Shown here: positions 480 through 21,554 of the stretch, in pieces
Layout of the letters: each line of letters begins with the position of its first letter
Numbering within the stretch: position 1 is the stretch's first letter
Source: a virus
Taxonomy: Duplodnaviria; Caudoviricetes
Strand: one strand, 5' to 3'
IMG/VR virus record: IMGVR_UViG_3300033551_000029
Location: 1 to 29,592 of that record
DNA: 29,592 nucleotides
Notes under the pieces: model-generated
The model's database searches: none
What the model saw: the letters and a program-made list of their open reading frames with translations, nothing else
What the model was told of the DNA's origin: nothing
Made by a program: the position numbers and the translations under genes

Positions 480-1031
480 ATGGCAGACGAAGATCCCCCG
501 GCGAACCTGCCGGCCCGCCGCAGTGGTGCCCGGCACCGGTCCGGCAACGAGAACGGCAAGAGGGTCACCGCCAACGCCCAGGACCTGGCCAACAAACGCA
601 TTAGGGCGTTGGAGTTGCGGATTCAGGGTTGGACCTACAACCGGATCGCCCAAGAGCTCGGAGTCAGCTACCAGGTCGCGTACAAATACGTCACGGCGCC
701 ACTGAAGGTCCGCGAGGCCGAACTGATCCCGACCATGCGGGAGATCGAAGCCGCCCGGCTGGATGCAGTGCTTGAAGAGGCGTTCGGGACCATGGAGAAG
801 AAGAAGGGTACCGAGCTCGCGCTGAAAGCCGCAGACCGGGTGATCCGGGCGGTTAGCACGCGGGCGGCGCTGTTCGGGCTGAACGCGCCAGTGGCAGTGA
901 GCCTGACCGAGGCCACCCCGATCGCAGATGAGATCGCGCAGTTGATCAAGGCCGCTGAGGCGGCGAACCAGCGGACCCGGCAACAGATCATCGAGGGTGA
1001 GGTTGTAGAGGATGGCGACCGAGCAGCCTAG
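480..1031 (+). CDS. putative terminase small subunit / HTH DNA-binding protein (183 aa)
   Basis: AGGAG RBS at 467-471, ATG at 480; HTH ALELRIQGWTYNRIAQELGVSYQVAYKYV followed by a helical region ending RAALFGLNAP; first gene of the packaging module. Confidence 0.7.
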   Translation: MADEDPPANLPARRSGARHRSGNENGKRVTANAQDLANKRIRALELRIQGWTYNRIAQELGVSYQVAYKYVTAPLKVREAELIPTMREIEAARLDAVLEEAFGTMEKKKGTELALKAADRVIRAVSTRAALFGLNAPVAVSLTEATPIADEIAQLIKAAEAANQRTRQQIIEGEVVEDGDRAA

Positions 1032-2619
1032 GTGGCCTCGCGGGACCCCTGTCGGCCCGTCTGGGCGCGGGCCGGGCGGTGGTAGGTTTCGTAGCGGACG
1101 CGACGCGCTGGCCGTCCCCCATGCCCCGCTCGAAGGTGTCACGACTGGCATCTTTGATCGTGGGTTCGCCGACCTGGACGAGGCTACGCAGGCGTTCATC
1201 GACTACCGTGGCGGGGGGTTTGCGCTGATCTCCGCTGCGGCGGCGGGCACATTGACTCATCCGGACTGGGCCGCTGAGCCGGAAACCAACATCCGAGCCA
1301 GGCAGCGGGCCGCAGCGATCGACCGGGTGATGCAACAGTCGCGCCTGCCGCATGGCATCGAGGTCTATCGGGGCAGTCGGGCTGAATACCTGTTTGGGCC
1401 GGTTGCGGACTGGCCGGACGACATGACCGGCAGGGAATGGGCTGGTCTGGGGTACATGTCGACTTCGGCCAACTCGGGGGTCGGCGAGCAGGTGGGAGCT
1501 CTACGTCCTACCCTCTTCGAGGGCGGCAGGTCGGCGATGGACTTTGTCGACCGGGCAACACAATTGGGGCAGACAGGCGGCCTGGTGCACATGACGATCC
1601 GGGTGCCGGCGGGTACCCCGGCGGTGCGACTGTCAGAGTGGGAACACGAGGCGGAGGTTCTGCTTGACAAGGGGCTGCGCTTCCGGGTGACGGCCGACAA
1701 CGGATGGGAAACAGTCGAGTTGCGCGACGGGCCGGAACCGGTCCGGATGCTGGAGGTGGAGGTCATACCAGCTGACTGGGCTGGCCAAGCCTCGACTCGG
1801 CTGTCCGGGCGCACGGCCCGCCACGATGTTGCCCAGATGTCTGATGCCGAACTGGATCAGCGCGCACTCGAGGCCGTTCGCGTGGCGCGTGCTGCCCCCA
1901 GCACCCGCGACATCTACCGGTCCGGTGGGCCGATGACCGACTGGGACCCCGAGCGGACGGCATTGCACGAGAAGATCCTGCAGCGGGCGATGGCCCAGGC
2001 GCGCGGCGTGCCCCGGCAACGCCGCGCGATCATGGCCGGCGGGCTGCCCGGCGCCGGCAAGACCTCCGCGCTGGGCAATCTGGACGGGTACCTGCAGGTC
2101 AACCCGGACGCGATGAAAGATGAGCTGATCGCGGAGGGTGCAATCCCCGCCATCCCCGGCGCCGAACACCTGTCCCCAATGGAACTGAACCCGAGCTTCC
2201 ACGTCGAGTCGACCTACCTGGCGGATCGGCTGCTGGAGATGGCGATGGCCAAGGGGTACAACGTGGTAATCGATGCCACGATGGGAGCACCGGACGCCCC
2301 GCTGGCCCGCTTGGCTCTGCTGCGGGAAGCCGGCTACGCCACCCGGGGGGTGTTCGTCGACGTCCCGGTCGAGGTCAGCATGGCCAGGGTCCAGTCCCGC
2401 TACCGCGAGGGTATGCGCCAGTGGGCGCGCGGCCAGGGCCACGGCGGACGACCGATTCCGGCGGATTTGATCGAGAGCCAACGGGGCGACAACTCGGCTG
2501 GCTGGACCCGCAACCGGGCGGTGTTCGAACACTTGGCTGCGCTCGGAGTGTTCTCCGGCTGGGATCTGTACGACAACTCCGGAGACGAACCACGGCTCGT
2601 TCGCACCACCGGCGTGTGA
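1012..2619 (+). CDS. tagged effector 1: VIP2-like ADP-ribosyltransferase fused to a zeta-toxin-like P-loop kinase (535 aa)
   Basis: N-terminal tag EQPRWPRGTPVGPSGRGPGGGRFR; ART R-S-E motifs EVYRGS / GYMSTSAN / HEAEVLLDKG; then GGLPGAGKTS Walker A, VNPDAMK, NVVIDATM, GVFVDVP and GRPIP typical of zeta toxins. Confidence 0.85.
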   Translation: MATEQPRWPRGTPVGPSGRGPGGGRFRSGRDALAVPHAPLEGVTTGIFDRGFADLDEATQAFIDYRGGGFALISAAAAGTLTHPDWAAEPETNIRARQRAAAIDRVMQQSRLPHGIEVYRGSRAEYLFGPVADWPDDMTGREWAGLGYMSTSANSGVGEQVGALRPTLFEGGRSAMDFVDRATQLGQTGGLVHMTIRVPAGTPAVRLSEWEHEAEVLLDKGLRFRVTADNGWETVELRDGPEPVRMLEVEVIPADWAGQASTRLSGRTARHDVAQMSDAELDQRALEAVRVARAAPSTRDIYRSGGPMTDWDPERTALHEKILQRAMAQARGVPRQRRAIMAGGLPGAGKTSALGNLDGYLQVNPDAMKDELIAEGAIPAIPGAEHLSPMELNPSFHVESTYLADRLLEMAMAKGYNVVIDATMGAPDAPLARLALLREAGYATRGVFVDVPVEVSMARVQSRYREGMRQWARGQGHGGRPIPADLIESQRGDNSAGWTRNRAVFEHLAALGVFSGWDLYDNSGDEPRLVRTTGV

Positions 2620-2637
2620 CACCCCGCGTGGTATAAT
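2616..2637 (+). promoter_or_regulatory. 22-bp promoter/operator motif, copy 2
   Basis: GTGACACCCCGCGTGGTATAAT with a perfect TATAAT; overlaps the stop of the ART-zeta gene. Confidence 0.7.
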
Positions 2638-2654
2638 GGTGTGGGAGGCACAAC

Positions 2655-2900
2655 ATGGCGACGGTGAGACAGACGGTGCAGGCACTGGCGGCAGGCAAGA
2701 TCAACCTTCGCCAGGCGGCGCAAACCCTGGCCGGCAGGGCCGACTGGGACCCGCCGATGCCGGAGCCGACCGAGGCCCAGCTGTACGGGCTGGAAGACAT
2801 CGCCCCCCCGGGTGACAACAGCCCCGACCAGATCAACATGGTGCCTGGCCTGGAGCCCGACGAGCGCGCTGCCCTGTGGGCGGCGGTCCGTCATGGCTGA
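2655..2900 (+). CDS. small untagged protein (81 aa), candidate antitoxin/immunity
   Basis: GGGAGG RBS and own promoter directly after the zeta-like domain; function inferred from position only. Confidence 0.7.
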   Translation: MATVRQTVQALAAGKINLRQAAQTLAGRADWDPPMPEPTEAQLYGLEDIAPPGDNSPDQINMVPGLEPDERAALWAAVRHG

Positions 2901-3621
2901 CCAACAGCGCTGGCCGAAAGGCACTCCCGTTGCTCCGTCTGGTCGGGGGCCGGGTGGCGGACGGTTTCGGCCGGTGCCGCCTGGACATGTCCGGCTGTAC
3001 CATGGACGTTTGCGCCCGCATTCTGGTGGGCGACTGCCCAGCAATCCGGTCGAGCTTGCTGCGGTTGTAGAAGCCGAATATGGTCTGCCACCTGGATCAG
3101 TCTACAGCCACGACCGATTTGCGGGCCAGCGTCATCGAGCGGACGACCCGCACTATTACGTTGCTCCCCGGGCAGATGCGATCGATTATGCCAAATACGG
3201 GGGGGAGGCTCTCGGGGATGCCCTACAGGCCGCCTTCTTCTTGTTGTACCCGGGCCGGGGGAGCGAGAAGACCTTAGATGGCAAGAGGTGGTTGTGGTCT
3301 GAGTGGGTGGAATCGCAGGTCTCCAAGTTTGGCGCGACAGAGCTAGAACAAGTCGATGTCCCCCATGAAGTGATCCGGGAGTACGACCAGTTCGGGTTCG
3401 ACCAAGGCTATACCGACGTTCAGCCGGGAACACCTGGGTCCTGGTTGGGGGTTTACCCGGAGCCAGACGACGAACAGGGATGGCTAGACCGAACTTCCAT
3501 TATGTCTTGGCCGGCGGGGATTGGCCTGACTCCTGCGCAGCGTAATCGAACGATTATTGAACGCGACATGGACTGGGCGCAGGAGATTAGTCGACGGTTG
3601 CCGGGGGGCGACCATGGCTGA
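2893..3621 (+). CDS. tagged effector 2: possible divergent His-type ADP-ribosyltransferase fold (242 aa)
   Basis: ATG 2893 overlaps the previous stop; tag DQQRWPKGTPVAPSGRGPGGGRFR; VRLYHG ... HYYVAPRADAIDYA pattern; ends DWAQEISRRLPG. Gene is secure, fold is tentative. Confidence 0.65.
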   Translation: MADQQRWPKGTPVAPSGRGPGGGRFRPVPPGHVRLYHGRLRPHSGGRLPSNPVELAAVVEAEYGLPPGSVYSHDRFAGQRHRADDPHYYVAPRADAIDYAKYGGEALGDALQAAFFLLYPGRGSEKTLDGKRWLWSEWVESQVSKFGATELEQVDVPHEVIREYDQFGFDQGYTDVQPGTPGSWLGVYPEPDDEQGWLDRTSIMSWPAGIGLTPAQRNRTIIERDMDWAQEISRRLPGGDHG

Positions 3622-4369
3622 CCAGCCGAGATGGCCCCGGGGAACACCCGTAGCACCTGGGGGCAGGGGTCCGGGGGGCGGTCGCTTCCGTGGAAGACCT
3701 TTCCGGGGGTCGATTAACCCGGTAGATGCTGGTGAGGCGCTAGAACTACGAGATGTGGTTGCTGGCAGTGGTCTCCGGCAAGAGTACACGATGCGGGCAC
3801 TGGCAGATTCAGCAGACATGGACGGCTGGGCCACGACCCGAGTGGCATTGAGCGAAGACGATGAAGTGGTTGGCGCGATCTCCACCAGTCCCTACAACCT
3901 GGGAGAGGATGCCCCACCGGTAACGTTGATCCACACTCTGGGTTCGCTCGCCCCCGGGGTGGGGACTGCGTTGGTGCGTGAAGCAATTGTCGAGGCCCAG
4001 CAAGCTGGGCACGGTGCAGTGTATGTCGAGCCCATTGCCGAATCAGAGGGTTTCTATAGGCGTCTCGGGTTTGTTGACGATCCCCTAGAGCTCGGCAGTC
4101 CTTTCTGGGGCATTCTGGCGGAGCATTTTGGTGACTGGCTGCGCCATATTGACTCGGACTGGGCCAACCAGGTCTCGGCGCGATTGCCCGGCAGTGACGA
4201 CGACTGGTGGGCACAACAGCAGGACGTGGGCGACTTCCAAGTGGGGGAGACGGGGGCGATCGCCGACGAGGAGGACATGTCGCGGTTGTGGGCCTCGCCG
4301 ACAGTGGAGGACGCCCTGCGGGCCTCCGCCGCAGGACATCCCACCACCGGGTGGTGGGACCCGCTGTGA
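3614..4369 (+). CDS. tagged effector 3: GNAT acetyltransferase (251 aa)
   Basis: Tag DQPRWPRGTPVAPGGRGPGGGRFR; acetyl-CoA loop PGVGTALVREAI and motif B SEGFYRRLGF; followed by DWANQVSARLPG. Confidence 0.8.
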   Translation: MADQPRWPRGTPVAPGGRGPGGGRFRGRPFRGSINPVDAGEALELRDVVAGSGLRQEYTMRALADSADMDGWATTRVALSEDDEVVGAISTSPYNLGEDAPPVTLIHTLGSLAPGVGTALVREAIVEAQQAGHGAVYVEPIAESEGFYRRLGFVDDPLELGSPFWGILAEHFGDWLRHIDSDWANQVSARLPGSDDDWWAQQQDVGDFQVGETGAIADEEDMSRLWASPTVEDALRASAAGHPTTGWWDPL

Positions 4370-5952
4370 CAGCGGTGCTCGAGCCCGTCTTCCAGGTCGA
4401 GAAGATCACCGACCCGTACGACCCTCGGGTTAACTCGGAGAACTTCGACCTGCCCGGCTATCTGGCCCAGTTCGATCCCCGGCTGCTGAACCACCCGAAA
4501 GGCCGCCGCACCCTCACCAAGTATGACCCGCTGCTGTTCGCGATCGTATATCTGCGCAACCACATCATGACCGATGGGGTCGTGTCGTTCGCCGACCCGC
4601 ACTTCGAGTGGGCAGCCCAGGCCCGGCAGTGGGTCCGGCCGAACGAGTTGAAGCAGGGCCGGCACGCCTACGTCGCCCCCCGCGACACTGGCAAGAGCAC
4701 CTGGTGGTTCTTGATCCTGCCGATGTGGGCCGCCGCGCACGGGCACAAGAAGTTTGTCGCAGCGTTCGCCCACTCCGGCGGGCAGTCCGAGACCCACCTG
4801 CACGCGTTCCGGTCCGAGCTCGGGGAGAACCACCTGCTGCGGGGAGACTTCCAGACCCTGTGCACCCCGGCGCGCAAGCCCAACGGCAAGACCACCGCCG
4901 ACAACATTCAGATGCTGCGGTGCGCCTCCGGATTCGCCTTCGCCGCGAGGGGTGTCGATGCCGCGAACCTGGGCTTGAAGGAGAAAGACACCCGGCCGGA
5001 CCTGATCCTGCTGGACGATGTTGAGCCTGACGAAGCTTCGTACAGCCAGTACCAGATGGAGAAGCGACGCGGGACCATCATCGAGGCGATCTTGCCGATG
5101 AACCTGCGCGCCCATGTCGCGATCGTCGGCACCGTTACCATGCCCGGCTCGATCGTGCACCAACTGGTCGCGAAAGCCCGGGGCGATGACGAGATCGAGA
5201 AGTGGATCGACGAGGAGAATTTCCAGCCCCATCATCACATGCCGATCCTGCTGCGCGACGACGGCACCGAACGCAGCATCTGGCCGTTCAAATGGCCGGT
5301 GCAGTTCCTGCGCAGCATCCAGCGGACCCGGTCCTACGCCAAGAACTTCTTGAACGACCCGGTCGGCAACGAGGGCGGGTACTGGACCCTGGAGGACTTC
5401 ACCTACCTGCAGCTGCCGAACGTCACCCGTCAGATGATCTCGGTCGACCCGACGATCACCACCAAGACCCAGTCCGACCCTGCCGGCATATCGGTCATCT
5501 CCTATGCTCCGGCGTACAAGGTCGAGCAGCACGGGCAGTTGCCGGTGAAGATGCCCAGCCGCTGCCAGGTGGATTTCGCGGCGGAGGTGCGCCTGGTCGG
5601 CGAGCCGTTGCGGCAGTACCTGCTGAAGCTGTGCCGGCAGTACCCCCGGGTGTCGCTGATCGTGGTCGAAGCGAACCAGGGCGGGGAGAACTGGCACTCA
5701 ATCCTGCATGACATGCCGGTGCGGGTGGTGATCGTGTATTCGACCGCACCCAAAGAGGTGCGGGCGGCCAACCTGCTCGAGCTGTACCAGCACAATCCGC
5801 CCCGGGTGGTGCACGCTCAACGGCACACCCTGCTCGAGCAACAGATGGCGTCGTTCCCGCGCGGCAAGGACGACCTGGTCGACTCGGTCGGGGCGATCTG
5901 CCTGCGCGTGCTGGCCAACCGGGTCAAAGAGGGCGTGATGTTCCCGAAGTAG
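4366..5952 (+). CDS. terL: terminase large subunit (528 aa)
   Basis: GTG start overlapping the prior TGA (GTGA); Walker A APRDTGKST, Walker B LILLDDVE, nuclease motifs ISVDPT, VEANQGG and DDLVDS. Confidence 0.92.
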   Translation: MTAVLEPVFQVEKITDPYDPRVNSENFDLPGYLAQFDPRLLNHPKGRRTLTKYDPLLFAIVYLRNHIMTDGVVSFADPHFEWAAQARQWVRPNELKQGRHAYVAPRDTGKSTWWFLILPMWAAAHGHKKFVAAFAHSGGQSETHLHAFRSELGENHLLRGDFQTLCTPARKPNGKTTADNIQMLRCASGFAFAARGVDAANLGLKEKDTRPDLILLDDVEPDEASYSQYQMEKRRGTIIEAILPMNLRAHVAIVGTVTMPGSIVHQLVAKARGDDEIEKWIDEENFQPHHHMPILLRDDGTERSIWPFKWPVQFLRSIQRTRSYAKNFLNDPVGNEGGYWTLEDFTYLQLPNVTRQMISVDPTITTKTQSDPAGISVISYAPAYKVEQHGQLPVKMPSRCQVDFAAEVRLVGEPLRQYLLKLCRQYPRVSLIVVEANQGGENWHSILHDMPVRVVIVYSTAPKEVRAANLLELYQHNPPRVVHAQRHTLLEQQMASFPRGKDDLVDSVGAICLRVLANRVKEGVMFPK

Positions 5953-5987
5953 TTCGACTTCGATGCAGTTGCATGCGTTGTGCCATC

Positions 5988-5997
5988 GTGGTAGGAT
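5988..5997 (+). promoter_or_regulatory. extended -10 (GTGGTAGGAT), probably driving a leaderless transcript
   Basis: TAGGAT is followed by 6 nt and then ATG 6004; no SD sequence. Confidence 0.5.
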
Positions 5998-6003
5998 GGC
6001 GGC

Positions 6004-7338: not shown

Positions 7339-7345
7339 GGGTGAC

Positions 7346-8620
7346 ATGACGGACGACCAGCCCAGGTGGCCGAAAGGTACGCCGGTGGCCCCAGGCGGCA
7401 AGGGGCCAGGCGGTGGGCGGTTCCGTGGTAAGGCGGGCGACCTCGAAGCCGCGATGGCCGGTTGGGGTGGTGGCGGACCCTGGATGGCAGTCACTCTCGG
7501 TCTGGATGTGCCTGCTAGCGGGCCACTGCCGCCGCAGCGGCCCCCGTTCACTGCCGTTTTTGATCGAGCCCGGCGCGATCCCACCTCCGGCCGCATCGAG
7601 CTAGTGCGCGACTACGGCACTGGTGTCGAGACTTCGCTTTCCCCCGGCATGAACGTCGAGGTGACTCCCCTCGGAGGGTGGATCGGCCAGGTGGTCGACC
7701 GCATGGACCGGCGTCGAGGTGTGGCCAGAACCAGTCGAGTCGATTCCACCATGGCTGAGCCAGCCATGCCGGATGCTCAACCTGGCACGGCCTATGACGT
7801 GGCCGAACTGCTCGAGCAGGGGCATCGGGTGCAGGTTTATCACCCCTACGGCCAGCTGGATGACAGGTGGTCCGAGGTCCAAGCCGCAGAGGTGGTCGGG
7901 GAAGATCACGTGGGCCTGCGGATGCGGCTGGGCCAGGGGAGCGACATATTTACGCATGGCCCGGAGGTGCTGCAGTATCGCATCGTGGGCCGTCGAGAGA
8001 CCCCGAACCCGCCCGTCCTGCGCGCCGACCGGGTGATTGGGTATCCCGAGGAACTGCCGGCCGACCCGACCGAGCGCCAGCGCGAAGAAATCATGCAGAA
8101 CCTGGGTGGCCCTCCGATCTACCCGCAGCGGCAGATGCGTCGGGTGTTTGAGCAGTTCGGGATCGAGGTCAGCGAAGACGACCTTGCCTGGCTGATTGAC
8201 AAGGTCAAGCCGTCGTTCGCCATGCCCTGGTCCGAGTTGGGCAACGCCGTGGTTGAGTACCTGGCCCAACGCGGCAACATTAACGACCTGGTCCGAGTCC
8301 AGAAAATGAACTGGGCCGATTCGATCCGCCCCCCCGAGTTGCACGCCGCCATGCGAGCCCCCTTGACTAACGTCGCCCTGGACGACGGGCCGATGCGGTT
8401 CGAGGCGGCTTTCGAGCAGTACCTGAAAGAGCGCTACGGGTACGAAAGCGAAGAGCTCGACCGGATCTTGAACAGCGAGGCTTTCCATGAGTCTGTTGCG
8501 CCAGACTGGGATCGTTGGGTCGCGGACCGGCCGGGGACCGAACAGATCCTAATGTTCGACCGATTGTTCCAGAACATTACAGACCGCATGCTTTACTACG
8601 GCGAGGGTGTCGATGACTAG
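7346..8620 (+). CDS. tagged protein 4: unknown domains (424 aa)
   Basis: MTDDQPRWPKGTPVAPGGKGPGGGRFR; helix GWIGQVVDRM; small beta-rich unit and helical C-terminal region; lies between terL and portal. Confidence 0.75.
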   Translation: MTDDQPRWPKGTPVAPGGKGPGGGRFRGKAGDLEAAMAGWGGGGPWMAVTLGLDVPASGPLPPQRPPFTAVFDRARRDPTSGRIELVRDYGTGVETSLSPGMNVEVTPLGGWIGQVVDRMDRRRGVARTSRVDSTMAEPAMPDAQPGTAYDVAELLEQGHRVQVYHPYGQLDDRWSEVQAAEVVGEDHVGLRMRLGQGSDIFTHGPEVLQYRIVGRRETPNPPVLRADRVIGYPEELPADPTERQREEIMQNLGGPPIYPQRQMRRVFEQFGIEVSEDDLAWLIDKVKPSFAMPWSELGNAVVEYLAQRGNINDLVRVQKMNWADSIRPPELHAAMRAPLTNVALDDGPMRFEAAFEQYLKERYGYESEELDRILNSEAFHESVAPDWDRWVADRPGTEQILMFDRLFQNITDRMLYYGEGVDD

Positions 8621-11593: not shown

Positions 11594-11596
11594 GCC

Positions 11597-14500
11597 ATGC
11601 CCAGGCGTCGCGACTACCACGGCCGCGACCCGGGCGAACGCTGGCCGGCAGGGTCTCCTGACGACGCTAGCGGCGACGGGCAGGGCGGCAGATTCCGTCG
11701 GACGGGCTCTGGCGGGGTGCCTGCTGGCGACTGGGCGGAGGTAGTATCCGCCCGCATCGCGGGCGAAAGCATCGATGACCGGGACGAGTCTGCGGTTACC
11801 CGCGAAACAGGCGCTGGGTCGATGGCAGACCTGGCGCGCCTGGTTCGGGAGCACGGCGCAATCGATGTGATGATGCGGCGGGACCCGCACTACGGTTGGA
11901 TGCCGGGCGATCACGAAAGCACCCCGATTGTCATCACCGATGTCAGGGAAGAACCGGGACCGGCCTGGGCGGCCCTGCCGAACATCGGCCTGACTGGTCT
12001 GGATCCGGACAGCGATCTGCCCGAGCACCGGCGTGACTCGATCGACCTGGGTGTATATCCGGGTTCATGGACGGTGCGTTGGCGGATGCCGTGGGATGCC
12101 CCTGAGGGGCAGCAGCGCACCGCTAGCAACATCTCTGCCCTGCTGGGCGACGACTTCGCCGACGTGGAGATTCAGCAAGATGACGGCACCTGGATATCGG
12201 TGGCTGCAGACGTTGGGCGGTATCAGGGGCGACCTAGCGGATATATCTCTCTGCGCGCCCGAGACGGCGGGGTGGAGCCGTTAGGCAACTACAGGGAGGG
12301 CGATTTGATCACCGCCCGGGTCCGGGAGTTGACCGAAGAAGAACGGTTGGCGCGCGAGCTCGGGGATGCCGACCCAGTCGACGTGCCAGGCGACAACGAA
12401 GGGTGGGACCCGCCGACCAATCTCACTGCTGCGTCCGTGGCAGAGAACGCGGCGAACGGCTACGGAGCCCAGATGTGGAACCCGGACTATGACAGATGGG
12501 TTCCCATTCAGATCCAGCGCGAAGACGTTGGCGGCAGAATCCGCTATCGTGTTACCGATGACGACGATGGATTCATTGAGAACTATGCACCGCATGAGCT
12601 TCTGCGGGTGCGGACCGCAACCAACCGGACGCCCGCCACCACTCCTGACACTCCGCCGGGAGTGGAGTGGCGGTCCGGTGGTTCTTGGCCCCCCAACGAT
12701 GTTGCCGCCCTGTTCAGGCAGACAGGCGACGTGCAGATCCGCAACAGTCGCGGTGAGTGGGATAGAGTTGCGTCCGTTGACTATCTGGCCAGCGACGGGC
12801 AGTACCGGTTTGTCCTGGAGAACGACGGTGAGATCTTCGAAGACGAAGACAACAATATTCTTGAGACTCGGATCCTGATCCACACGGACTCTTCGCCCAC
12901 GGTTGCAGTCGAGACCCCGCTGTTGCCGGCCGGAGCCACCTCGGAGCAGTGGCGCGAATATGACAACCTGATCCTAGACAACGCAGTCGAGATCGTGAAC
13001 GACCCGACTTCGGCGGTGGCGGCGCTCGGGCTTAGCCTGCCGAGAGGGTTCGATCACGACGTGTTCCGCAATTGGGTGACGCAACTGCAATCCCTCCGGC
13101 GCACTCCCGGCGCGGAACAGGATGCCCATCGGGCTGCGATGCAGATCAGCCGATTGGCTGGGCTGGACGACTCCCCGTGGATCCAGCAGATGATGCGCCA
13201 TCGGCTCGGTCGAGGTCCCGCCCCCAGTACGGTGTCGTCTCAACGGCAAGAATACAACGACGAGGTTGCCGACGCTGTGCGACTGGCAGTCGAGGCCGGT
13301 CGAATGCGTCTGGCGAGTGGGGGCACAGACCGGGCAGCGGCACATACCGCCTTTAGTGTGCTCGAAGGCGACTATGGCGTGGAAGCCGCCAGTCTGCTCT
13401 GGGACGCCCGGGATTCGAGCGGAACGGCTTTCCTTGCGCTGTCCAACAGCTATGACGATTACCTTGCACAGGTCGCGGCGGGTGATCTGCACGGAGCATC
13501 AGAGACGATTGACGGGCTGGCGGCCTATACCGGGCTGGACGACATCTTCATTGCCCCCACGGAGGGCGCGTCCATTGCCGCCCCAGCGGCGGGCGCAGAC
13601 CCTCCCAGTAACGCCACGAGCGTGGTCATGCATGCCAACGTGGAAACCCTGGTCCGGCACAGGAATCTTGGGGCAGAGGTGGCCGTCCAGATCACCACCC
13701 CAACTGGTCCCGGTTGGTATGCGGTGCAGTTCCACGGGGTAGAGCACGACGGCACCATTTCCCTGCAAGTTGCGGACATCGCTCACGACGACGAGCCTTG
13801 GTATGACTTCGAACCCGGCACACCGGTCCAGTTCGTCCACTTCGACCAAGGTCCCGAGCAATATGAGGCGACCGCCGCCGATTTGGCAGCCGGGCTGTAC
13901 GGTAGCCCTGGCGAGCTTGAAATTTTGATCCCCACCGGGTGGGAGCTGGTCCGTGGCTGGGACAACGATGGATCGCTGGTAGACATCCTAACCTGGCAGG
14001 CGGACGGCACCGAGGGAAGCATCACGCGCACCCCCGGCCAGGAGATTACGTGGCGGCCCCGCCCGCCTGGGGTTACCCCACGTCCTTTGCCGCGCCAACA
14101 GGTTGCCCCTCCCACCCCGCCTGCGCCGCAAGTGAGCCCGCTACATTCATGGAACAACCCGCCGGCTGGCGAACTGCCCGGCGGGGCGGCCACCCTGCGC
14201 GAGATGATGGAGGTGCTGCAGGCGGCCCAGTTGGGCTGGGCGTCACTAACCATATCGCCGGAACTCAAACGGCGGATCGAGCAGATCTTCGCCTACACCG
14301 ACCCCTCGTCTGGGCTCGAGGCCAGGATTACCACCATTGAGCTCTCTGCTGCTGGGCGGATGGCTGTCGGTGGCCGGGTGTATGACCAGAACGGTCGCGA
14401 CGTTGGCAACTGGTCCCGCAACCTCGATGCTGACGGGAATGTCTATCATGCTTATTTCCGACTGAACCCAGACATCCAGGGCGACGGGTTTACCACCCGC

Positions 14501-14956
14501 TGGTTCGAGCAGGTGCTGGACGGATACCGCGCCGAGGGCATGTCCAAGGTTGCGGTGTCTGCCAACATCGATGTGGGCGGCTACACCTGGTCGCGGTGGT
14601 TCGATTTCGCCGACCCTGGGCGCGCCCGGATGTTCTTGGAACAGATGCTGGCGGCGGTTGATCAACGCTGGTACCAACATGTCACCCCCGACACCAAGCA
14701 GGAGATCGAAGATTTGATCACTCGGCTGGAGAATGGCGGTCGGGTCACTGCCCGGGAGGTCTCACAGGTCGGCTACAGCAGGCGCCAGCGGATCAACCCC
14801 CCTGATGGGTATGAGTCGAATCCCCAGGACTGGGATTCGAACGCCGACTGGATCCGGGATATTCTGCCGCGACGGGGCAGCGGCACGCCGATAGAGATGT
14901 GGCTCGGCAAGCACTTCATGCTCGGTAAGTCTTGGGCTGGTGTGCTCGAGCTCTAA
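11597..14956 (+). CDS. tagged effector 6: polyvalent-type protein with repeated beta-rich units and a C-terminal GNAT-like domain (1119 aa)
   Basis: Divergent tag ERWPAGSPDDASGDGQGGRFR; DWAEVVSARIAG; C-terminal YHAYFRLNPDIQGDGF ... SANIDVGGYTWSR GNAT-like pattern. Confidence 0.75.
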   Translation: MPRRRDYHGRDPGERWPAGSPDDASGDGQGGRFRRTGSGGVPAGDWAEVVSARIAGESIDDRDESAVTRETGAGSMADLARLVREHGAIDVMMRRDPHYGWMPGDHESTPIVITDVREEPGPAWAALPNIGLTGLDPDSDLPEHRRDSIDLGVYPGSWTVRWRMPWDAPEGQQRTASNISALLGDDFADVEIQQDDGTWISVAADVGRYQGRPSGYISLRARDGGVEPLGNYREGDLITARVRELTEEERLARELGDADPVDVPGDNEGWDPPTNLTAASVAENAANGYGAQMWNPDYDRWVPIQIQREDVGGRIRYRVTDDDDGFIENYAPHELLRVRTATNRTPATTPDTPPGVEWRSGGSWPPNDVAALFRQTGDVQIRNSRGEWDRVASVDYLASDGQYRFVLENDGEIFEDEDNNILETRILIHTDSSPTVAVETPLLPAGATSEQWREYDNLILDNAVEIVNDPTSAVAALGLSLPRGFDHDVFRNWVTQLQSLRRTPGAEQDAHRAAMQISRLAGLDDSPWIQQMMRHRLGRGPAPSTVSSQRQEYNDEVADAVRLAVEAGRMRLASGGTDRAAAHTAFSVLEGDYGVEAASLLWDARDSSGTAFLALSNSYDDYLAQVAAGDLHGASETIDGLAAYTGLDDIFIAPTEGASIAAPAAGADPPSNATSVVMHANVETLVRHRNLGAEVAVQITTPTGPGWYAVQFHGVEHDGTISLQVADIAHDDEPWYDFEPGTPVQFVHFDQGPEQYEATAADLAAGLYGSPGELEILIPTGWELVRGWDNDGSLVDILTWQADGTEGSITRTPGQEITWRPRPPGVTPRPLPRQQVAPPTPPAPQVSPLHSWNNPPAGELPGGAATLREMMEVLQAAQLGWASLTISPELKRRIEQIFAYTDPSSGLEARITTIELSAAGRMAVGGRVYDQNGRDVGNWSRNLDADGNVYHAYFRLNPDIQGDGFTTRWFEQVLDGYRAEGMSKVAVSANIDVGGYTWSRWFDFADPGRARMFLEQMLAAVDQRWYQHVTPDTKQEIEDLITRLENGGRVTAREVSQVGYSRRQRINPPDGYESNPQDWDSNADWIRDILPRRGSGTPIEMWLGKHFMLGKSWAGVLEL

Positions 14957-14962
14957 ACCGGA

Positions 14963-14984
14963 GTGACACGCGGTGTGGTACAAT
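14963..14984 (+). promoter_or_regulatory. 22-bp promoter/operator motif, copy 4
   Basis: GTGACACGCGGTGTGGTACAAT, starting 7 nt after the stop of the 1119-aa gene. Confidence 0.7.
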
Positions 14985-15009
14985 TGGGGGGGAGAAGAGG
15001 AGGCGCGAA

Positions 15010-15276: not shown

Positions 15277-15574
15277 GGCGCTAGTGCGCAACCTCGACAA
15301 GGTCGTGATCGGTCAGTTGATCGATGACGGCACCCACGAGCCCTACGGCACCAACCCGATGGTGGACGAGATGCTGCGGGCTGACCGACGGGACCGGTTC
15401 GACCGGTACTACCTGGGCTACAGCAACGGCTTTACCTTCGAGACGGTGCCGGAGGTGGCGGTCCGCAAGCCGGCCGTGTGGGACCAGTTCCTGGCCTGGG
15501 CTCGTAGCGACGGCCGCAACGCCAGCATGGCGGACAAGGTCGCCAAGCTCGATTCCATGGCGGGTGCCCGGTGA
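15263..15574 (+). CDS. small untagged protein (103 aa)
   Basis: AAGGAG RBS at 15251-15256, ATG 15263 (MAARKALVRNLDK), GC3-rich codons; stop overlaps the next start. Confidence 0.7.
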   Translation: MAARKALVRNLDKVVIGQLIDDGTHEPYGTNPMVDEMLRADRRDRFDRYYLGYSNGFTFETVPEVAVRKPAVWDQFLAWARSDGRNASMADKVAKLDSMAGAR

Positions 15575-16134
15575 GCCGCCGCGACGACCAGGACCGCTGG
15601 CCGAAAGGCACCCCGGTTGGGCCGGGTGGCAAAGGCCCAGGTGGTGGGCGGTTCCGCGATGCGGGGCCGTCCGCCCCGGGCGTCGGTGGAGACTGGGCGG
15701 ACCGAATCTCCAGTTCGATTGGCGGCGATGCTGACAACGAGGCTCTCCTTGATTGGGAGACGAAAGCTTCCGAGTACATGCGCAGCGTCGAGAGCATGCG
15801 CGACGACGAGATCAACGACTTCTGGGAGTGGGTGGCCCTGACCGGAGGGGGCGGCCCCGACGACGGGGACCCGGAGGACTGGGCTGCTCGAGTCCTGTCG
15901 GAGTTCTATGAAGACCGAGACGACGGGAACGAGGATGGCATCTCCCCTGGGGAGGCCGCCTATGACCCCCGCACAACCAGTTTCGTGGTGGGCATGACCG
16001 TCAACCTGCCAGGCGGCGGTAGGGGTCGGGTCACCGCCGTGGGTAGTGACGGGTTCGTGTTCGTGCAGCCCGATGGGGGCGGCCAAGTCCAGGTGCACAC
16101 CGCCAGCTTCTTGCGGAGCCTGCGGGACGGCTGA
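15571..16134 (+). CDS. tagged protein 7: acidic region plus C-terminal KOW/SH3-like domain (187 aa)
   Basis: DQDRWPKGTPVGPGGKGPGGGRFR; DWADRISSSIG; FVVGMTVNLPGGGRGRVTAVGSDGFVFVQPDG. Confidence 0.7.
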   Translation: MSRRDDQDRWPKGTPVGPGGKGPGGGRFRDAGPSAPGVGGDWADRISSSIGGDADNEALLDWETKASEYMRSVESMRDDEINDFWEWVALTGGGGPDDGDPEDWAARVLSEFYEDRDDGNEDGISPGEAAYDPRTTSFVVGMTVNLPGGGRGRVTAVGSDGFVFVQPDGGGQVQVHTASFLRSLRDG

Positions 16135-16146
16135 AAGGCGTGAGCG

Positions 16147-17187
16147 ATGCCAGCACCAGCCGATCAACCCCGGTGGCCGGAGAATATCCCCTGGAGTCCC
16201 AGGGGGCCGGCACCGGGGCGTTGGCGTAGTCGCGCTGACGCCACGTCTTGGACCGACCTGCTATACCAGCGGATCACCGGGCAGCCTGTCTGGGCGGACC
16301 GCAGCCGGGTTGCCCTACAGGCCCTGGGTCGCCCAACCAGCCGGCGGCGGCTTGGCGGCGGGGCGATCGCTGAAACCGAAGTGCTTACCTACGCTGACGG
16401 TTCGGCTGCGATCCGCAAGATCTTCGGTGGCGAGGCCGATGATCGGTTGAACCAACACCGGGCCAGCGCAGAGTACATGGCGTCGCTGGTCGCCCAGGCG
16501 GTCGGCGCGACCGCCCCTGCTGTGGTGAAAGACCCGACCGACCCGGAACACTCGGTGATCATGGGCCGGGTCACCGGTGACATGGGGACTATCCACACCG
16601 GAGAGGCTAGCGCCGAGGAATGGGGCCAGGCGCTATATTACTTGACCCAAACCGATGGCGGGCTGCGGATCGGCCTGCTGGACGTGCTGATTGCCAACCA
16701 GGACCGCCACTCGATGAACTGGTTGCTGTCCGACCAGATGGCCGATCCCCACCCGTGGAACCCTACCCGAGAGGACATGCGCCGACCGATCGCGATCGAT
16801 CATTCGGAAGCGTTCCCTCTGGCCACGCTCGCGCAGGCGTACCACTTCCGGATCGCCGACCCACAGGGGCAGCCGCTGTACACGATGCCATTGGAGGTCG
16901 GGGCCTACGGCGGCTTCTTTACTCCCTGGATGCAGCGGACGAACGATGTCGTGGACATGCTCGGTAACCCGGTGGCACAGGCCCCCCTTCTCGGGGCCTA
17001 CGCCTACCGGGATGGCAATCCGCTGCACCCAGATGACGTTCCGGTGTTGCGTGCCCGGCTGGAACGGCTGAAGTCGCTGTTCGAGGATGAGCCGACCGGG
17101 CACTTGGCATACCAGGACATGATGGCTCGGTTTGAGCAACTGGCCGCGCGAGCAGGCGGGCGCGAGAGGATGTTTCCCGATGTCTGA
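16147..17187 (+). CDS. tagged effector 8: HipA / PI3-PI4-kinase-like kinase (346 aa)
   Basis: Divergent tag DQPRWPENIPWSPRGPAPGRWR; IRK, AEYMAS, LLDVLIANQDRHSMNWL and IAIDHS motifs. Confidence 0.82.
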   Translation: MPAPADQPRWPENIPWSPRGPAPGRWRSRADATSWTDLLYQRITGQPVWADRSRVALQALGRPTSRRRLGGGAIAETEVLTYADGSAAIRKIFGGEADDRLNQHRASAEYMASLVAQAVGATAPAVVKDPTDPEHSVIMGRVTGDMGTIHTGEASAEEWGQALYYLTQTDGGLRIGLLDVLIANQDRHSMNWLLSDQMADPHPWNPTREDMRRPIAIDHSEAFPLATLAQAYHFRIADPQGQPLYTMPLEVGAYGGFFTPWMQRTNDVVDMLGNPVAQAPLLGAYAYRDGNPLHPDDVPVLRARLERLKSLFEDEPTGHLAYQDMMARFEQLAARAGGRERMFPDV

Positions 17188-18154
17188 TGACCAGCCGCGT
17201 TGGCCCGCCGGCACCCCTGTTGCGCCTGGCGGCAAAGGCCCTGGCGGCGGTCGCTTCCGTGGGATTGGCGTGCCCGGTCGGGGGGGGTGGGTCGAACAGG
17301 TCTCGGGTCGGTTTGCCCGAGGCTGGGCCAATGATGATCGTAGCCGGGACGAACTGTTCGAGGTCGTGCAGTCGGCTGCGTCCGCCCCCGATGGCATGCC
17401 GCCCGGGGCTACCATGGAGAACTACAGCGGCGATGCCGCGACTGTTTGGCGCATCGACTTGCCGGATGGTCGATCCGTGGTGCGCAAATCCTACGACGAA
17501 GCATTGTCGGACTATTACGATGGCGAATATGACGAGCAGTACGATGACGACGACGGGGAGTATTTGTCGGTCGACGATCCTCGCAGACGACCAGCCAAAG
17601 AGGATGAAGTTCATGCACGGGCGGAGTGGGTGTCTGCTCGGGTCGCGCGGGCAGTCGGCGCGTTGGTCCCCCCGGTGGTTTTTGACCCCCAATGGGGCGG
17701 CGCGGTGTGGATGGGCTGGGTCGATGGCAAGACTGGCATCAACTGGGACTTTGAACACCAGGACAAGGGGGCGACACTCGCTGCCAAGCAGGATATGTGG
17801 CGGCTTGGACTGCTCGACCTACTGATCATCAATAGCGATCGCCACGAACTGAACTGGCTTTTCACCGAGGACGGTCGGGTTTTTGGGATCGACCATGGCT
17901 ATGCGGGACTGTTCACGGATTTTGTCCCGACCGAGGCCATTGGGGCGATCTCGCCATTCGCCCAACTGTATTACGACAGCGGCGAGAAACTTAAACCGAA
18001 CATCTTACATCCGGACGACATCGATGATGTCATCGGGCGGCTTGGGGGCCTGTGGGAAGACGGCACCTTGAGTGAGCCCGAGTACAACTACATGGTGCGG
18101 GTGATGAACTGGCTGCGCCCCCACGCTACCGGCACTAGGAGGCTGATCCCGTGA
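17180..18154 (+). CDS. tagged effector 9: HipA / PI3-PI4-kinase-like kinase (324 aa)
   Basis: MSDDQPRWPAGTPVAPGGKGPGGGRFR; VRK, AEWVSA, LLDLLIINSDRHELNWL and FGIDHG motifs. Confidence 0.82.
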   Translation: MSDDQPRWPAGTPVAPGGKGPGGGRFRGIGVPGRGGWVEQVSGRFARGWANDDRSRDELFEVVQSAASAPDGMPPGATMENYSGDAATVWRIDLPDGRSVVRKSYDEALSDYYDGEYDEQYDDDDGEYLSVDDPRRRPAKEDEVHARAEWVSARVARAVGALVPPVVFDPQWGGAVWMGWVDGKTGINWDFEHQDKGATLAAKQDMWRLGLLDLLIINSDRHELNWLFTEDGRVFGIDHGYAGLFTDFVPTEAIGAISPFAQLYYDSGEKLKPNILHPDDIDDVIGRLGGLWEDGTLSEPEYNYMVRVMNWLRPHATGTRRLIP

Positions 18155-19215
18155 GTGACCAGTCGCGCTGGCCTGCGGGCACCCCGGTCGCCCCCGGCGG
18201 ACGCGGTCCTGGCGGGGGGCGGTTTCGGGAGCGCTGGGCCGATGCCATTGTTTACAGCTTGACTGGACACATACCGGTTCCCCGGACGCGGGTCGCGGTT
18301 GACCCGCAGATTGCTGCCGATCTGTATGCGGTTGCTCGATATGACGTGGGCGCCCCATCCGGAGTGGAGATCCAAGCTAGCCAGGAGTTGTGGGAAGAAC
18401 GCAGTCGGTGGTGGGATCGCCGCCACGACGTGAACAGCCGTCTGCGGGCGGCTGTTGATGACACTCTCTCACGCGAGCAGATCATGGAACGGGCATATCG
18501 TGATGCCGGCATCGACCACTACTTCGAGGAGTACGTCGAACGCAACGGGATAACTGACCCTGAGGCGTTCAAGCGGCAGGCCGTTGAGCGCATGCGGCAA
18601 TATTGGGCTGGGATGGAAGTCGCAATCCGGATCACTCCGACCGGCCTGGAAAGGATGTTGGGAGACCGGCGATTCCGAACGGTGCACGAGACTGGGCGCA
18701 GTGGGGGGCTGAACGACGCAGATGTGCGTGCCCGTCACGAGGCGGTTACCTGGGGCTATCTGCCAGAAGGCGATCCTCGAGCTCGGCCGGTGTATGGCTA
18801 CTTGATGGACCGGGATCGTCCAGCCGGCGACAAAGATTCGTTCGCCGACAACGGTGATGCCCTGTCGCAGTACGGTCGAGTTCAAGTGGTGTTGCGCAGC
18901 AGTGTTCGCCAACGAACTACCGCGATGTACGGCGATTCCCTGGACATGAAGCTGTTTGGCGAACCGTCCCCGGTCGATGATCCCGACTGGCGCAGCTGGA
19001 CGTTCGGTCGGGGTGGGATCTTCGGAGCCCCCTACATGGGTCTGGATCGTGACAACTTGCACACGAGCTTGGCGTACATCGAGGCACAGGTCCATGGCGG
19101 GGTGGAATCGGAAGACATCGAGCGAGTAATCTTCACAGATCGGGGGCCGCCGGCTGCGCTGCGGCGGCTGCTGGAGGAACACGGGATCGGCTGGAGCGTG
19201 GTACGCAGTGGCTGA
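18151..19215 (+). CDS. tagged effector 10: DUF3626-like (putative ART-related) domain (354 aa)
   Basis: Tag DQSRWPAGTPVAPGGRGPGGGRFR; RFRTVHETGRSGG, RPVYGYL, YGRVQVVLR, RTTAMYGDS and YIEAQVHGGV motifs. Confidence 0.75.
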   Translation: MSDQSRWPAGTPVAPGGRGPGGGRFRERWADAIVYSLTGHIPVPRTRVAVDPQIAADLYAVARYDVGAPSGVEIQASQELWEERSRWWDRRHDVNSRLRAAVDDTLSREQIMERAYRDAGIDHYFEEYVERNGITDPEAFKRQAVERMRQYWAGMEVAIRITPTGLERMLGDRRFRTVHETGRSGGLNDADVRARHEAVTWGYLPEGDPRARPVYGYLMDRDRPAGDKDSFADNGDALSQYGRVQVVLRSSVRQRTTAMYGDSLDMKLFGEPSPVDDPDWRSWTFGRGGIFGAPYMGLDRDNLHTSLAYIEAQVHGGVESEDIERVIFTDRGPPAALRRLLEEHGIGWSVVRSG

Positions 19216-20326
19216 CCAGGCGCGTTGGCCCCGGGGCACGCCGGTGGCCCCCGGCGGCCGTGGCCCCGGCGGGGGGCGATTCCGCGACGCCGAGGTCGAT
19301 TGGGCCGACCTGGCGGTCGATCGAATGATGCCTGCCCGCAACCCCCGGCTGGGGCTGAGTCGCGCCGAGCTCCAGGACCTGATCGACAATCCGCCCGAGT
19401 CCATTCCGGGACCACCCAGAACGCTGCCGGCTCTGGACGCAGCAGTTCAGATGATGCAAGACGAGCTCGGCGAGTATGAGGTGCAGCACGACGGCGCCTG
19501 GCGGCAGATGGCCTCCATTGCCCCCTTGTCGGTTGGGGGGCTGCTATACCGCTCCTGGGTGCCCGAACAGTTGCAGTGGGAAGTCGGCCGCGACGAACCT
19601 GTCACCTTCCGGCGCCACCCCCCGCCATACACCCGGGAGGACATCTCCGATGGCGGTGGGAGCTACACCCAACGCGTGGTGTGGAACGATGGCCGGCGAG
19701 TCGTAGTCAAAGGCGGCGGCGCCACCCGGGACACCGATGCGGAATATCTGGCGAGCCTGGTCGGGCAGGCAGTCGGAGCTCCGGTGCCCGAAGTGCTCCG
19801 GATCAGCAGTCAGACTGTCTGGATGGGCCATGTCAGTGGCGATTCGGGGATGATGGTTGCACAAAAGCGCGGCCTGGACCCGTACGAGGTCACCGACGAC
19901 TGGGAAGAGATCTGGGCCGACCAGGAACCCGGGTGGCGGCTCGGGTTGCTCGACGTGCTGATCATGAACGAAGACCGACACCACGGCAACTGGCTGTTCG
20001 AGGACCCATCCGACCCCGCCAGCATTGTTGGGATTGACCACGGTCGGGCCTGGTGGGTTGCCGACCGGTTGCGCCCGGTTGAGCCCGGGGAGCGCCCGAT
20101 CGGCTTGAAGCCTGATTGGACGGCTATCCGGCGGGCGGTCTACGATGGGGCAGTGCCCCACGGTTGGCGCACCGATCGGACGACCCTGCAGGAGGTGCAG
20201 CAGATGGACGCCCGAATCCGTGCACTCGAGCCCGAGTTCCTGGCGCTGGACCGAGGGCGTTGGTTCGACCACACGCTTGCTGCTTGGGACAGTTTCGTAG
20301 CCGCGATGCAGGCCGACCATGGGTGA
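19208..20326 (+). CDS. tagged effector 11: HipA / PI3-PI4-kinase-like kinase (372 aa)
   Basis: Tag DQARWPRGTPVAPGGRGPGGGRFR; VVK, AEYLAS, LLDVLIMNEDRHHGNWL and VGIDHG motifs. Confidence 0.82.
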   Translation: MADQARWPRGTPVAPGGRGPGGGRFRDAEVDWADLAVDRMMPARNPRLGLSRAELQDLIDNPPESIPGPPRTLPALDAAVQMMQDELGEYEVQHDGAWRQMASIAPLSVGGLLYRSWVPEQLQWEVGRDEPVTFRRHPPPYTREDISDGGGSYTQRVVWNDGRRVVVKGGGATRDTDAEYLASLVGQAVGAPVPEVLRISSQTVWMGHVSGDSGMMVAQKRGLDPYEVTDDWEEIWADQEPGWRLGLLDVLIMNEDRHHGNWLFEDPSDPASIVGIDHGRAWWVADRLRPVEPGERPIGLKPDWTAIRRAVYDGAVPHGWRTDRTTLQEVQQMDARIRALEPEFLALDRGRWFDHTLAAWDSFVAAMQADHG

Positions 20327-21554
20327 TCAACCGAGGTGGCCCGCCGGCACGCCGGTGGCTCCTTCAGGGAAGGGACCCGGCGGGGGGCGGTTCCGGGCAA
20401 CTGGGCCGATACATTGGCGGGTGTTCCCGACCGGTGTGCTGCCCGATCTGGTTCCCGGGGACGACTCGCGCGACGCAGTCCTGCAGATACGCCGGGGCGA
20501 GGAACATGGTGGTGGGCTAGGCCGGTGGTGGTTCGCTGCGGGCGATGAGGAGCACAACGACGAAGAATCGGCCCGACGCGGCGCTGAACACTACGGTGGC
20601 GAGGGTCAAATCCTGGTCGGGGCTCGGTTTGAGCACCCGGAGCGGTTGGAGAGCCCCAGGCACTCCAGTGGGCTCTATGCCCGCGAACCGCTGCAGTTGT
20701 TGGTCGAACAGGTGCACGTCTGGGAGAACGGTCGGTGGGAGCCGATCGAGGTACCGGAGGGATTGACCTCTTGGACTTCTGCGCCGCACGATTGGGCCGA
20801 ACAGGTGGCGGGACGGCTGCCCGGTGAGCGTCGGGCGGCCGGTCGCGAAGCACTGGAGGCGATTCCTCTCAGCATCCGAGACGGTCGGGGATTTGCCATT
20901 GCGCTCTTCGGGGACCAGGATTACTATGCGCCCGGTGGCGGCGCCGACACGCTCCACGCGATCCACGACTACCAGTCGGTTGGCTATCGCGACGTTAACC
21001 CACACCTGCGCAATCCCGCCGAGGTTTCTCTTGCGCGCTACCGGCATCGCTGGGGGCAGTGGGAAAGTCCGGATGATATTGAAGCCATGGCCAAAGTTGA
21101 GGCACGAGCGCAACGGCTGATGGAGCTCATGGGAGAACACGTTACGCTGATCGATCGCGCATTGGATGCGTCGCGCACCGAGAGAGATGTCGAGCTCTGG
21201 CGTGGGTTCGACGGTGGATATCTTGGCGATCTGTCAGTTGGGTCTACTTGGTCCGATGGGGCTTACACCTCTACCACGGCAGACCGGGAGGTTGCCTCGA
21301 TGTTTGCATCACACGAAGCCGGGGGCGTGCTTGTGCGGCTTCTCGTCCCTCGGGGAACCCCGGCATTGCGGATGTCTGACTTCTATGCCCCGGGGACAGC
21401 TGATGGCATCCGTGGTGAGGCCGAGGTGTTGTTGGGTCGGGGGCTTGAGTTCGTGGTGGTGGCCGACCGGGGGATAGTGGAAGTCGACCAAGAAGCTGAT
21501 GGGACGCCGCGCATGGCCCGGGTGTTCGATGTGGCAGTCCGAGAGATGGAATAG
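20319..21554 (+). CDS. tagged effector 12: unknown N-domain plus VIP2-like ADP-ribosyltransferase (411 aa)
   Basis: Tag DQPRWPAGTPVAPSGKGPGGGRFR; DWAEQVAGRLPG linker; YRDVNPHLR, ELWRGF, AYTSTTAD and GEAEVLLGRG ART motifs. Confidence 0.85.
   Translation: MGDQPRWPAGTPVAPSGKGPGGGRFRATGPIHWRVFPTGVLPDLVPGDDSRDAVLQIRRGEEHGGGLGRWWFAAGDEEHNDEESARRGAEHYGGEGQILVGARFEHPERLESPRHSSGLYAREPLQLLVEQVHVWENGRWEPIEVPEGLTSWTSAPHDWAEQVAGRLPGERRAAGREALEAIPLSIRDGRGFAIALFGDQDYYAPGGGADTLHAIHDYQSVGYRDVNPHLRNPAEVSLARYRHRWGQWESPDDIEAMAKVEARAQRLMELMGEHVTLIDRALDASRTERDVELWRGFDGGYLGDLSVGSTWSDGAYTSTTADREVASMFASHEAGGVLVRLLVPRGTPALRMSDFYAPGTADGIRGEAEVLLGRGLEFVVVADRGIVEVDQEADGTPRMARVFDVAVREME

Follow-up and report, generated by a model that had tools for sequence, protein, structure and literature searches.

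By what signal are enzymes that are encoded among phage head genes, as proteins of their own, brought into the capsid and out of it again? Predictions of head-packaged effectors are numerous, but the way in which unrelated proteins enter and leave a capsid is known for only a few phages. The question is raised by the window analysed here, the entire 29,592-base IMG/VR virus record IMGVR_UViG_3300033551_000029 (66% G+C; the record is partial). It holds the head and tail-start module of a phage (terminase large subunit, portal, MuF-like, scaffold, HK97-fold coat, neck and tail-tube genes) and, among these, twelve genes, called cargo 1 to cargo 12 (Table 1), which share an N-terminal peptide with an RWP...GRF core (the tag). 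ADP-ribosyltransferase (ART), zeta, kinase or GNAT domains, or leads to them, are found in eight of the twelve. From their sequences, the twelve proteins are likely capsid cargo, and the better candidate for their capsid address is probably not the tag, but a second shared peptide, a helix resembling the tail of the phage scaffold.

The tag and the scaffold-like helix

All twelve tags lie in frame on the + strand and begin 4-13 residues after the start codon, nine in full and three in degenerate form (genes at 10637, 11597 and 16147), as a preliminary description of this DNA had stated; its estimate of ~14.7 kb for the tagged genes agrees with the 14,685 bp counted. A regular expression for the tag matches the window 11 times, against a mean of 0.015 (maximum 1) in 200 codon shuffles, the copy at 11597 escaping the expression. 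The further claim that the tag is conserved as protein while its codons differ also holds: 677 of 756 codon pairs among the nine full tags encode the same residue, 223 of these with the same codon, and identity at codon positions 1, 2 and 3 is 0.88, 0.90 and 0.32. Because residues are kept while third-codon identity is so low, selection acts on the tag peptide; a DNA repeat or crossover site as the source of the tag was rejected on the same codon-position identities. No Pfam, PHROG or NCBIfam model covers the tag in the proteins scanned, a PDB sequence profile search with it gave no match, and tblastn of tags of 22-49 residues against cultured phages, an insensitive search, gave none.

The helix, which the preliminary description had passed over together with three small untagged genes in the array, follows the pattern W-x-x-x-[VIA]-x-x-[RS]-hydrophobic (the W-helix) and is present in all twelve cargos; its place varies, being behind the tag, interdomain or C-terminal. 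The phage's own scaffold ends in this pattern, and so does every one of the 22 scaffolds (13 distinct) that could be retrieved from relatives. A profile built only from the tail peptides of these 13 distinct scaffolds was tested on 8,994 sequence windows in 30 proteins of the record, and placed 11 of the 12 cargo helices among the top 16, with the phage's own scaffold second. A score of 7 bits or more on this profile is attained by 11 of the 12 tagged proteins, as against 2 of the 17 without a tag. The helix lies within 45 residues after the tag in 32 of 50 cases in this coat-protein family (shuffles 1.3%), versus 0 of 131 tags listed from other phages (shuffles 0.6%), and is carried by 28 of the 44 long-tag profile matches from outside the window (1.7% of 1,020 shuffles).

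A structural model agrees weakly with a coat-binding role. Docking was run with coat residues 44-360 and the cargo 12 helix, own alignments being supplied for both, alongside three controls; the score was 0.59, versus 0.01 for the best control, and the runs share at least 75% of contacts, with a predicted local distance difference test (pLDDT) value of at least 56 for the partner. Among reference pairs, 116 of the 157 solved ones attained the docking mark, as did 2 of the 215 mismatched ones, and likeness to solved scaffold-coat complexes may contribute to the score. Because scores of 0.60 or below were reached by only 18 solved pairs and both mismatches, the model lends weak support to the predicted docking of the helix on the coat protein.

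Shared peptides in adjacent genes could also be relics of gene duplication or cassette recombination (a reused 5' end or a DNA crossover site) with no addressing role, and the paralogy of the three kinases and the meeting of module fusions at the helix would fit such an origin. This explanation is nonetheless very improbable, given the gap between third-codon identity and that at the other two positions, the alternation of long and short tag forms on orthologous cargo, and the resemblance of the helix to the end of a non-homologous gene, the scaffold.

The tag beyond this array

The tag of the window is the long-loop form of a widespread motif, [WF]xxxxHPRxxxG[RKQ][FW]. A strict DNA pattern for it finds 16 loci on 6 viral contigs, one of them identical to the window, while a long-tag profile retrieves 51 proteins among 1.84 billion, seven being the window's own. 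In 50 of the 51 the match begins within the first 11 residues. Domains among the 51 (E <=0.01) comprise 19 kinases, 4 ARTs, 2 zeta, 1 GNAT and 1 LPD38. Most array genes of relatives begin with a short form, W..E..HPRD..G[RQ][FW]; forms bridging the two exist, including on cargo 10 orthologues, and orthologous cargo may carry either the long or the short tag. A 1,910-residue protein (P0030) holds four copies of a bridging form. Between its portal and scaffold genes, another relative (L007:4116-19199) carries ~14 genes with a tag, mostly the short one; several of these genes hold repeated small beta-rich domains matching no known family. One weak match of the short tag in the PDB (9rku_Af, a baseplate-complex entry, E 0.034) was taken as chance.

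One narrow pattern for the short form finds at least 131 loci. A head or packaging gene lies near at least 46 of 64 independent loci (39 by local profiles, 7 by PHROGs on a subset), several of the others being short or outside the head-gene scan, and in five complete or near-complete relatives all 23 short-tag matches fall between ~3 kb upstream of terS and the scaffold. Tag homologues mostly unlinked to head genes, which the preliminary description had named as a finding that would refute its reading, are thus not what is seen, and its view of the tagged genes as a head-module cargo set is supported. Regular expressions found no tag in the regions of Acinetobacter ABMM1, Moraxella Mcat8 and pMLP1.

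Outside this family, the motif takes a different position. Among the matches listed, 95 of 145 short-tag copies (in long loci) lie more than 150 residues from the previous stop codon and 28 within 60, and the motif is often repeated within one protein. Domains were scanned in 65 of the 104 short-tag open reading frames (ORFs) listed, and 19 of these 65 are fusions with a portal (10), MuF (7, one shared) or head-protease-type domain (3). Cargo behind the short tag includes ART, zeta, kinase, PBECR, LPD, RelA/SpoT, Nudix and 2H domains. In the cultured Burkholderia phage phiE131 (L181:2611-4890), a portal is followed by a short tag after a VD|S-like site and then by a PBECR3-like domain; the N-terminus of its coat protein has MD|A. 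Two further ORFs (L073:7410-8645 and L082:7365-8798) have the short tag after an Hdf-like domain (phrog_1620), which connects the motif with relatives of Hdf and DarA, inner-head proteins of P1.

These positions bear on the reading, made in the preliminary description, of the tag as a procapsid address. That the tag is itself the capsid-targeting sequence, in the style of the T4 internal proteins and P1 DarB, with the helix as a helper or spacer, is suggested by its N-terminal place in all twelve window genes and nearly all profile matches, by its conservation, which is far stronger than that of the helix, by the disorder of the leader in the cargo 10 model, and by the sufficiency of DarB N-terminal signals of fewer than 30 residues (PMC9024508). 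However, because the tag is present on cargo already fused to portal or MuF, it is unlikely to be a loading address; moreover, unlike a coat-specific address, the motif spans phages of differing portal and protease types, and the scaffold family is tracked by the helix, not by the tag. We therefore regard this explanation as unlikely and prefer the helix as the address; the ejection pathway, which the preliminary description gave as the other destination of the tag, may still be what the tag serves.

The residue before internal tags tracks the type of head module (among the matches listed). It is K in 14 of 20 HK97-portal/S78 groups versus 0 of 7 DUF2213 groups (p 0.002), and D in 6 of 7 DUF2213 groups versus 4 of 20 HK97-portal/S78 groups (p 0.004), statistics uncorrected for phylogeny. 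The tracking of module type suggests a maturation cut just before internal tags, which would make them N-terminal.

Cargo domains and the head module

Two kinds of statement about the cargo domains in the preliminary description need qualification. Of its domain calls, the two R-S-E ARTs and the zeta kinase exceed Pfam cut-offs, as does the GNAT of cargo 3 (one model); the three kinases and the DUF3626-like domain stay below, and the second GNAT, in cargo 6, is a lead from a language model (first match in the Atlas at 0.94, with Acetyltransf_1 on 20% of members) together with a motif A-like stretch, in a C-terminal domain 30-35% identical in relatives. Its statement that the parts downstream of the tag are unrelated does not hold for the three kinases, which are paralogous, or for the two ARTs, which are homologous. 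The R-STS-ExE, Walker A and kinase catalytic motifs are all intact in the cargo sequences. The best Foldseek matches of an AlphaFold2 model of cargo 10 (mean pLDDT 76) are ADP-ribosyltransferases (SopF, E 3e-6, and DarT), and on this predicted fold cargo 10 is likely a third ART.

Table 1. Array genes and neighbouring head genes in the window, with positions counted from its first base; numbers after family names are E-values.
Feature	Position	Strand	Residues	Tag	W-helix	Domains and matches
cargo 1	1012..2619	+	535	1024-1092	1777-1803	R-S-E ART (ADPrib_exo_Tox 1.2e-8); zeta-like kinase (Zeta_toxin 3.6e-16)
cargo 2	2893..3621	+	242	2902-2970	3574-3600 (C-terminal)	no Pfam or PHROG match
cargo 3	3614..4369	+	251	3623-3691	4160-4186	GNAT (Acetyltransf_1 5.9e-5, above cut-off)
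cargo 4	7346..8620	+	424	7358-7426	7679-7705	no significant family match (Pfam, PHROG, NCBIfam)
cargo 5	10637..11593	+	318	10655-10714 (degenerate)	11096-11122	helical domain without family
cargo 6	11597..14956	+	1119	11633-11698 (degenerate)	11732-11758	C-terminal GNAT-like domain (lead)
cargo 7	15571..16134	+	187	15589-15657	15694-15720; second helix-like copy at residue 62	acidic domain without family
cargo 8	16147..17187	+	346	16165-16227 (degenerate)	16249-16275 (weak)	PI3/4K-HipA-like kinase (PI3_PI4_kinase 0.0027, below cut-off), catalytic motifs present
cargo 9	17180..18154	+	324	17192-17260	17288-17314	kinase (Pfam 9.6e-6, below cut-off)
cargo 10	18151..19215	+	354	18160-18228	18235-18261	DUF3626-like (below cut-off), predicted ART fold
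cargo 11	19208..20326	+	372	19217-19285	19301-19327	kinase (Pfam 6e-4, below cut-off), motifs present
cargo 12	20319..21554	+	411	20328-20396	20793-20819	unassigned domain before the helix; R-S-E ART (ADPrib_exo_Tox 7.7e-10)
small untagged gene after zeta domain	2655..2900	+				in two relatives, a homologue of 42-43% identity stands behind the zeta cargo
two small untagged genes after cargo 6	15010-15276, 15263-15574	+				in two relatives, homologues of 38-43% identity stand behind the same cargo
terminase small subunit-like (helix-turn-helix), untagged	480..1031	+				Pfam HTH_23 4e-6, Terminase_5 0.01
terminase large subunit	4366..5952	+				phrog_38 1.8e-44; start 4366 placed by a 4-base overlap
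portal protein	8613..10532	+				phrog_104 1.4e-37
MuF-like minor head protein, untagged, without fused toxin	21560..22678	+				Phage_Mu_F 0.012, phrog_115 1.2e-4
head scaffolding protein	22732..23568	+				Phage_scaffold 3.3e-13; motif shared with coat N-terminus at residue 11
scaffold C-terminal W-helix, WEQRAADRM	23527..23553	+			23527-23553	rank 2 of 8,994 windows
HK97-fold major capsid protein	23766..24848 (start 23757 or 23766)	+				Phage_capsid 5.1e-10; 596 homologues

The cargos show module shuffling, with fusions joined at the helix. For example, residues 46-267 of cargo 1 match one stand-alone ART protein and residues 250-533 one stand-alone zeta protein, the junction lying at the helix, and the domain of cargo 2 is also fused to an ART behind the helix in P0186; a fold model of cargo 2 was unusable (pLDDT 40), and its Atlas match (0.87) is a lead. 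Homologues of cargo 9 and cargo 10 are fused to a MuF-type protein in Micromonospora phage pMLP1 and to MuF (P0182), respectively. The three small untagged genes of the array, of which the gene at 2655..2900 has no NCBIfam match, are candidates for immunity or partner proteins.

The array is interleaved with head and packaging genes, as the preliminary description had claimed, terL, portal, MuF, scaffold and coat being identified around it, and its reading frames mostly overlap or abut. The terS label of the gene at 480..1031 follows from position, homologues 37-45% identical sitting directly before terL in relatives. Relatives of the coat protein sit in Rhizomonospora, Ornithinicoccus and Actinomadura genomes, and the nearest portal relatives are Streptomyces phages (identity about 30%); because of these placements the host is likely an actinomycete. 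Whole relatives span 73-85 kb. An assembly artefact is unlikely, since an IMG/VR contig matches window positions 2-19201 at 100% identity and five related contigs also have arrays.

No head protease was found among the 29 window ORFs scanned with Pfam and PHROG, the record being partial. The scaffold (window 22762-22806) and coat (23850-23894) N-termini have a motif in common, G[YF]TxxGKPI[YF]HxxGG, which none of the twelve cargos has; of 119 coat homologues, 61 carry it under a strict pattern and 101 under a loose one. The motif recalls the common N-terminal site at which the coat and scaffold of phage 80alpha are cut by the host protease Prp (PMC5744158), and by this analogy it may be a host-protease site here. 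Between terL and the portal region lies the untagged gene 6004-7152, whose product combines a right-handed beta-helix (Pfam 5.8e-6) with a Ser/Pro/Thr linker and a run of hydrophobic residues near the N-terminus; it looks from sequence like a secreted or surface protein, and no homologue was seen in the compared regions of two relatives. A SAP-domain protein is encoded 3' of the coat gene at 25381-25890 (Pfam 7.6e-6).

Proposed loading and retention, and known systems

The preferred reading is a chain of steps. The cargo would be expressed late, together with the head genes, and its helix is predicted to dock, while the procapsid is being assembled, at the sites of the coat protein that the scaffold uses; after scaffold exit, the tag would help to keep the cargo in the head and to eject it with the DNA, and, judging from the domain families, the cargo would modify proteins, nucleic acids or wall precursors of the next host early in infection. 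As a whole, loading by the helix with later action of the tag in retention or ejection is what we believe, with moderate confidence. The reading of the array as cargo is further supported by the presence of the same families in MuF fusions, or in portal or MuF fusions where they follow a short tag (matches listed). Within this chain, binding of the tag to packaged DNA through its Arg/aromatic core is tentatively favoured because of the invariant Pro-Arg and Gly, the terminal aromatic residue and a likeness to the GxGGRF of NF-YA; binding to the portal or tail and binding to the mature inner wall are possible as well, each being somewhat less probable.

In other phages, tag and enzyme are joined behind a portal, MuF or protease and would reach the same end, apparently after a maturation cut, and this family, in which no head protease was found in the window, has likely replaced fusion by scaffold mimicry. 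A general two-step code can be proposed only with reservation: a family-specific mimic of the scaffold tail would load the enzyme, and a near-universal HPR...G[RKQ][FW] leader, made N-terminal by translation or by a head protease, would hold it on packaged DNA into the next cell. With the same reservation, this phage would separate the two signals on twelve stand-alone genes.

Several points weigh against the helix-and-tag chain. Amphipathic helices anchored by a W are frequent, and two untagged proteins score 8-10 bits on the scaffold profile; for 18 of the 50 family tags the following 45 residues contain no scoring helix, the helix of cargo 8 is missed by the profile (rank 68), and the helix is C-terminal, as in the scaffold, in only one of the twelve cargos. 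Co-variation of the cargo helices with the own scaffold gave no signal, the helices lying no nearer to it than to the scaffolds of relatives (mean rank 6.7 versus 7.5 expected; this phage 12 of 14). Four cargos (2893, 7346, 10637 and 15571) have no assigned enzyme domain. Neither the prophage relatives L176/L179 and L177 nor L161 show a tagged gene from portal to coat, as far as their sequence was examined, and the array is therefore dispensable. Since expansion frees the scaffold sites, retention of the cargo would depend on a further mechanism. Packaging, coat binding, ejection and activity on host targets are themselves read from sequences and models.

The expectation that scaffold-like binders exit with the scaffold also suits another explanation, in which the helix-bound proteins are not injected but remain in the head or do their work in the cell that makes the phage, in assembly tuning, late shut-off or lysis timing, or competitor exclusion. 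CpmB, discussed below, offers a precedent for an assembly modifier, zeta kinases inhibit cell-wall synthesis (PMC5512222), and the small untagged genes kept behind two cargos resemble immunity partners, which would fit action in the producer as well. However, the tag precedes the same enzyme classes in portal and MuF fusions that have been proposed to be packaged and injected, and twelve variable enzymes suit an arms race better than an assembly role, so that we think action in the producer improbable and retain delivery to the next host. Two short peptides on twelve separate genes would make loading and the later step separately testable, and the short tag provides a sequence handle for finding cargo proteins across many phage groups.

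Among the closest described systems are the MuF polymorphic toxins (PMC12226406) and the portal- or MuF-fused ARTs (PMC9503650). As in these, variable enzymes of the same families stand among head genes (terL, portal, MuF, scaffold and coat around the array), and small conserved genes follow two of the twelve cargos, which may correspond to the immunity gene of a MuF toxin. By contrast, the array consists of twelve separate genes with two short peptides in place of a fusion: no MuF domain was matched in any of the twelve cargos, and no toxin domain in the MuF gene at 21560-22678 (Pfam, PHROG). The phage polyvalent proteins combine ART, kinase, GNAT and zeta domains in shuffled modules in the context of virion genes (PMC5512222, Iyer et al. 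2017). The array has the same domain classes and module shuffling, but mostly one enzyme per protein, two effector domains (ART and zeta) being recognised in cargo 1 and one or none in each of the others. A shared leader or scaffold mimic was not seen in the passages of PMC5512222 consulted, and 'scaffold' occurs 0 times in its main text. Nor was any paper found on the tag motif or on arrays of scaffold-mimic enzymes, in a search of open literature in which short motifs are hard to find by text.

For the tag, the T4 internal proteins and P1 DarB, anti-host proteins packaged in the head, provide examples of demonstrated N-terminal head-targeting signals, with no consensus among the Dar proteins (PMC9024508; such signals in T4 and P1 are also treated in PMC12810830). 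The tag is likewise a short N-terminal peptide, on all twelve cargos here; unlike the P1 Dar signals, it is one consensus shared by twelve genes, is accompanied by a second motif, and also occurs inside fusions of unrelated phages. The likeness to NF-YA, a lead for DNA binding, lies in the RGPGGGRF end of the tag and in short forms such as HPRGxGGKF; in this eukaryotic protein GxGGRF is described as a DNA-recognition loop requiring the A2 helix and histone-fold partners (PMC12101057). PDB sequence profile searches with the long or short tag gave no NF-YA homology, and the cargo 10 model has no helix before the tag; the likeness is at most convergence.

For the helix, the counterpart is found in SaPI1 CpmB, which binds the coat protein of phage 80alpha through the same C-terminal helix as the 80alpha scaffold (PMC5644958). 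In both cases, a non-scaffold protein carries the amphipathic helix of the scaffold C-terminus. Unlike the cargos, however, CpmB is a competing scaffold of a parasite that alters capsid size, whereas here the helix, of different sequence and mostly internal, is attached to the phage's own enzymes; the RIIK hook of CpmB is in none of the aligned cargo-helix peptides. Cargo fused to the tail of the P22 scaffold is encapsulated (PMC9962691), and a scaffold-tail address, if true, would be a natural counterpart of this engineered loading, useful for protein delivery in actinomycetes. Lacking a fusion, the array does not belong to the MuF toxins, and the position of its helix and the lack of RIIK set it apart from CpmB, yet, as judged from sequence, it would work like a blend of both.

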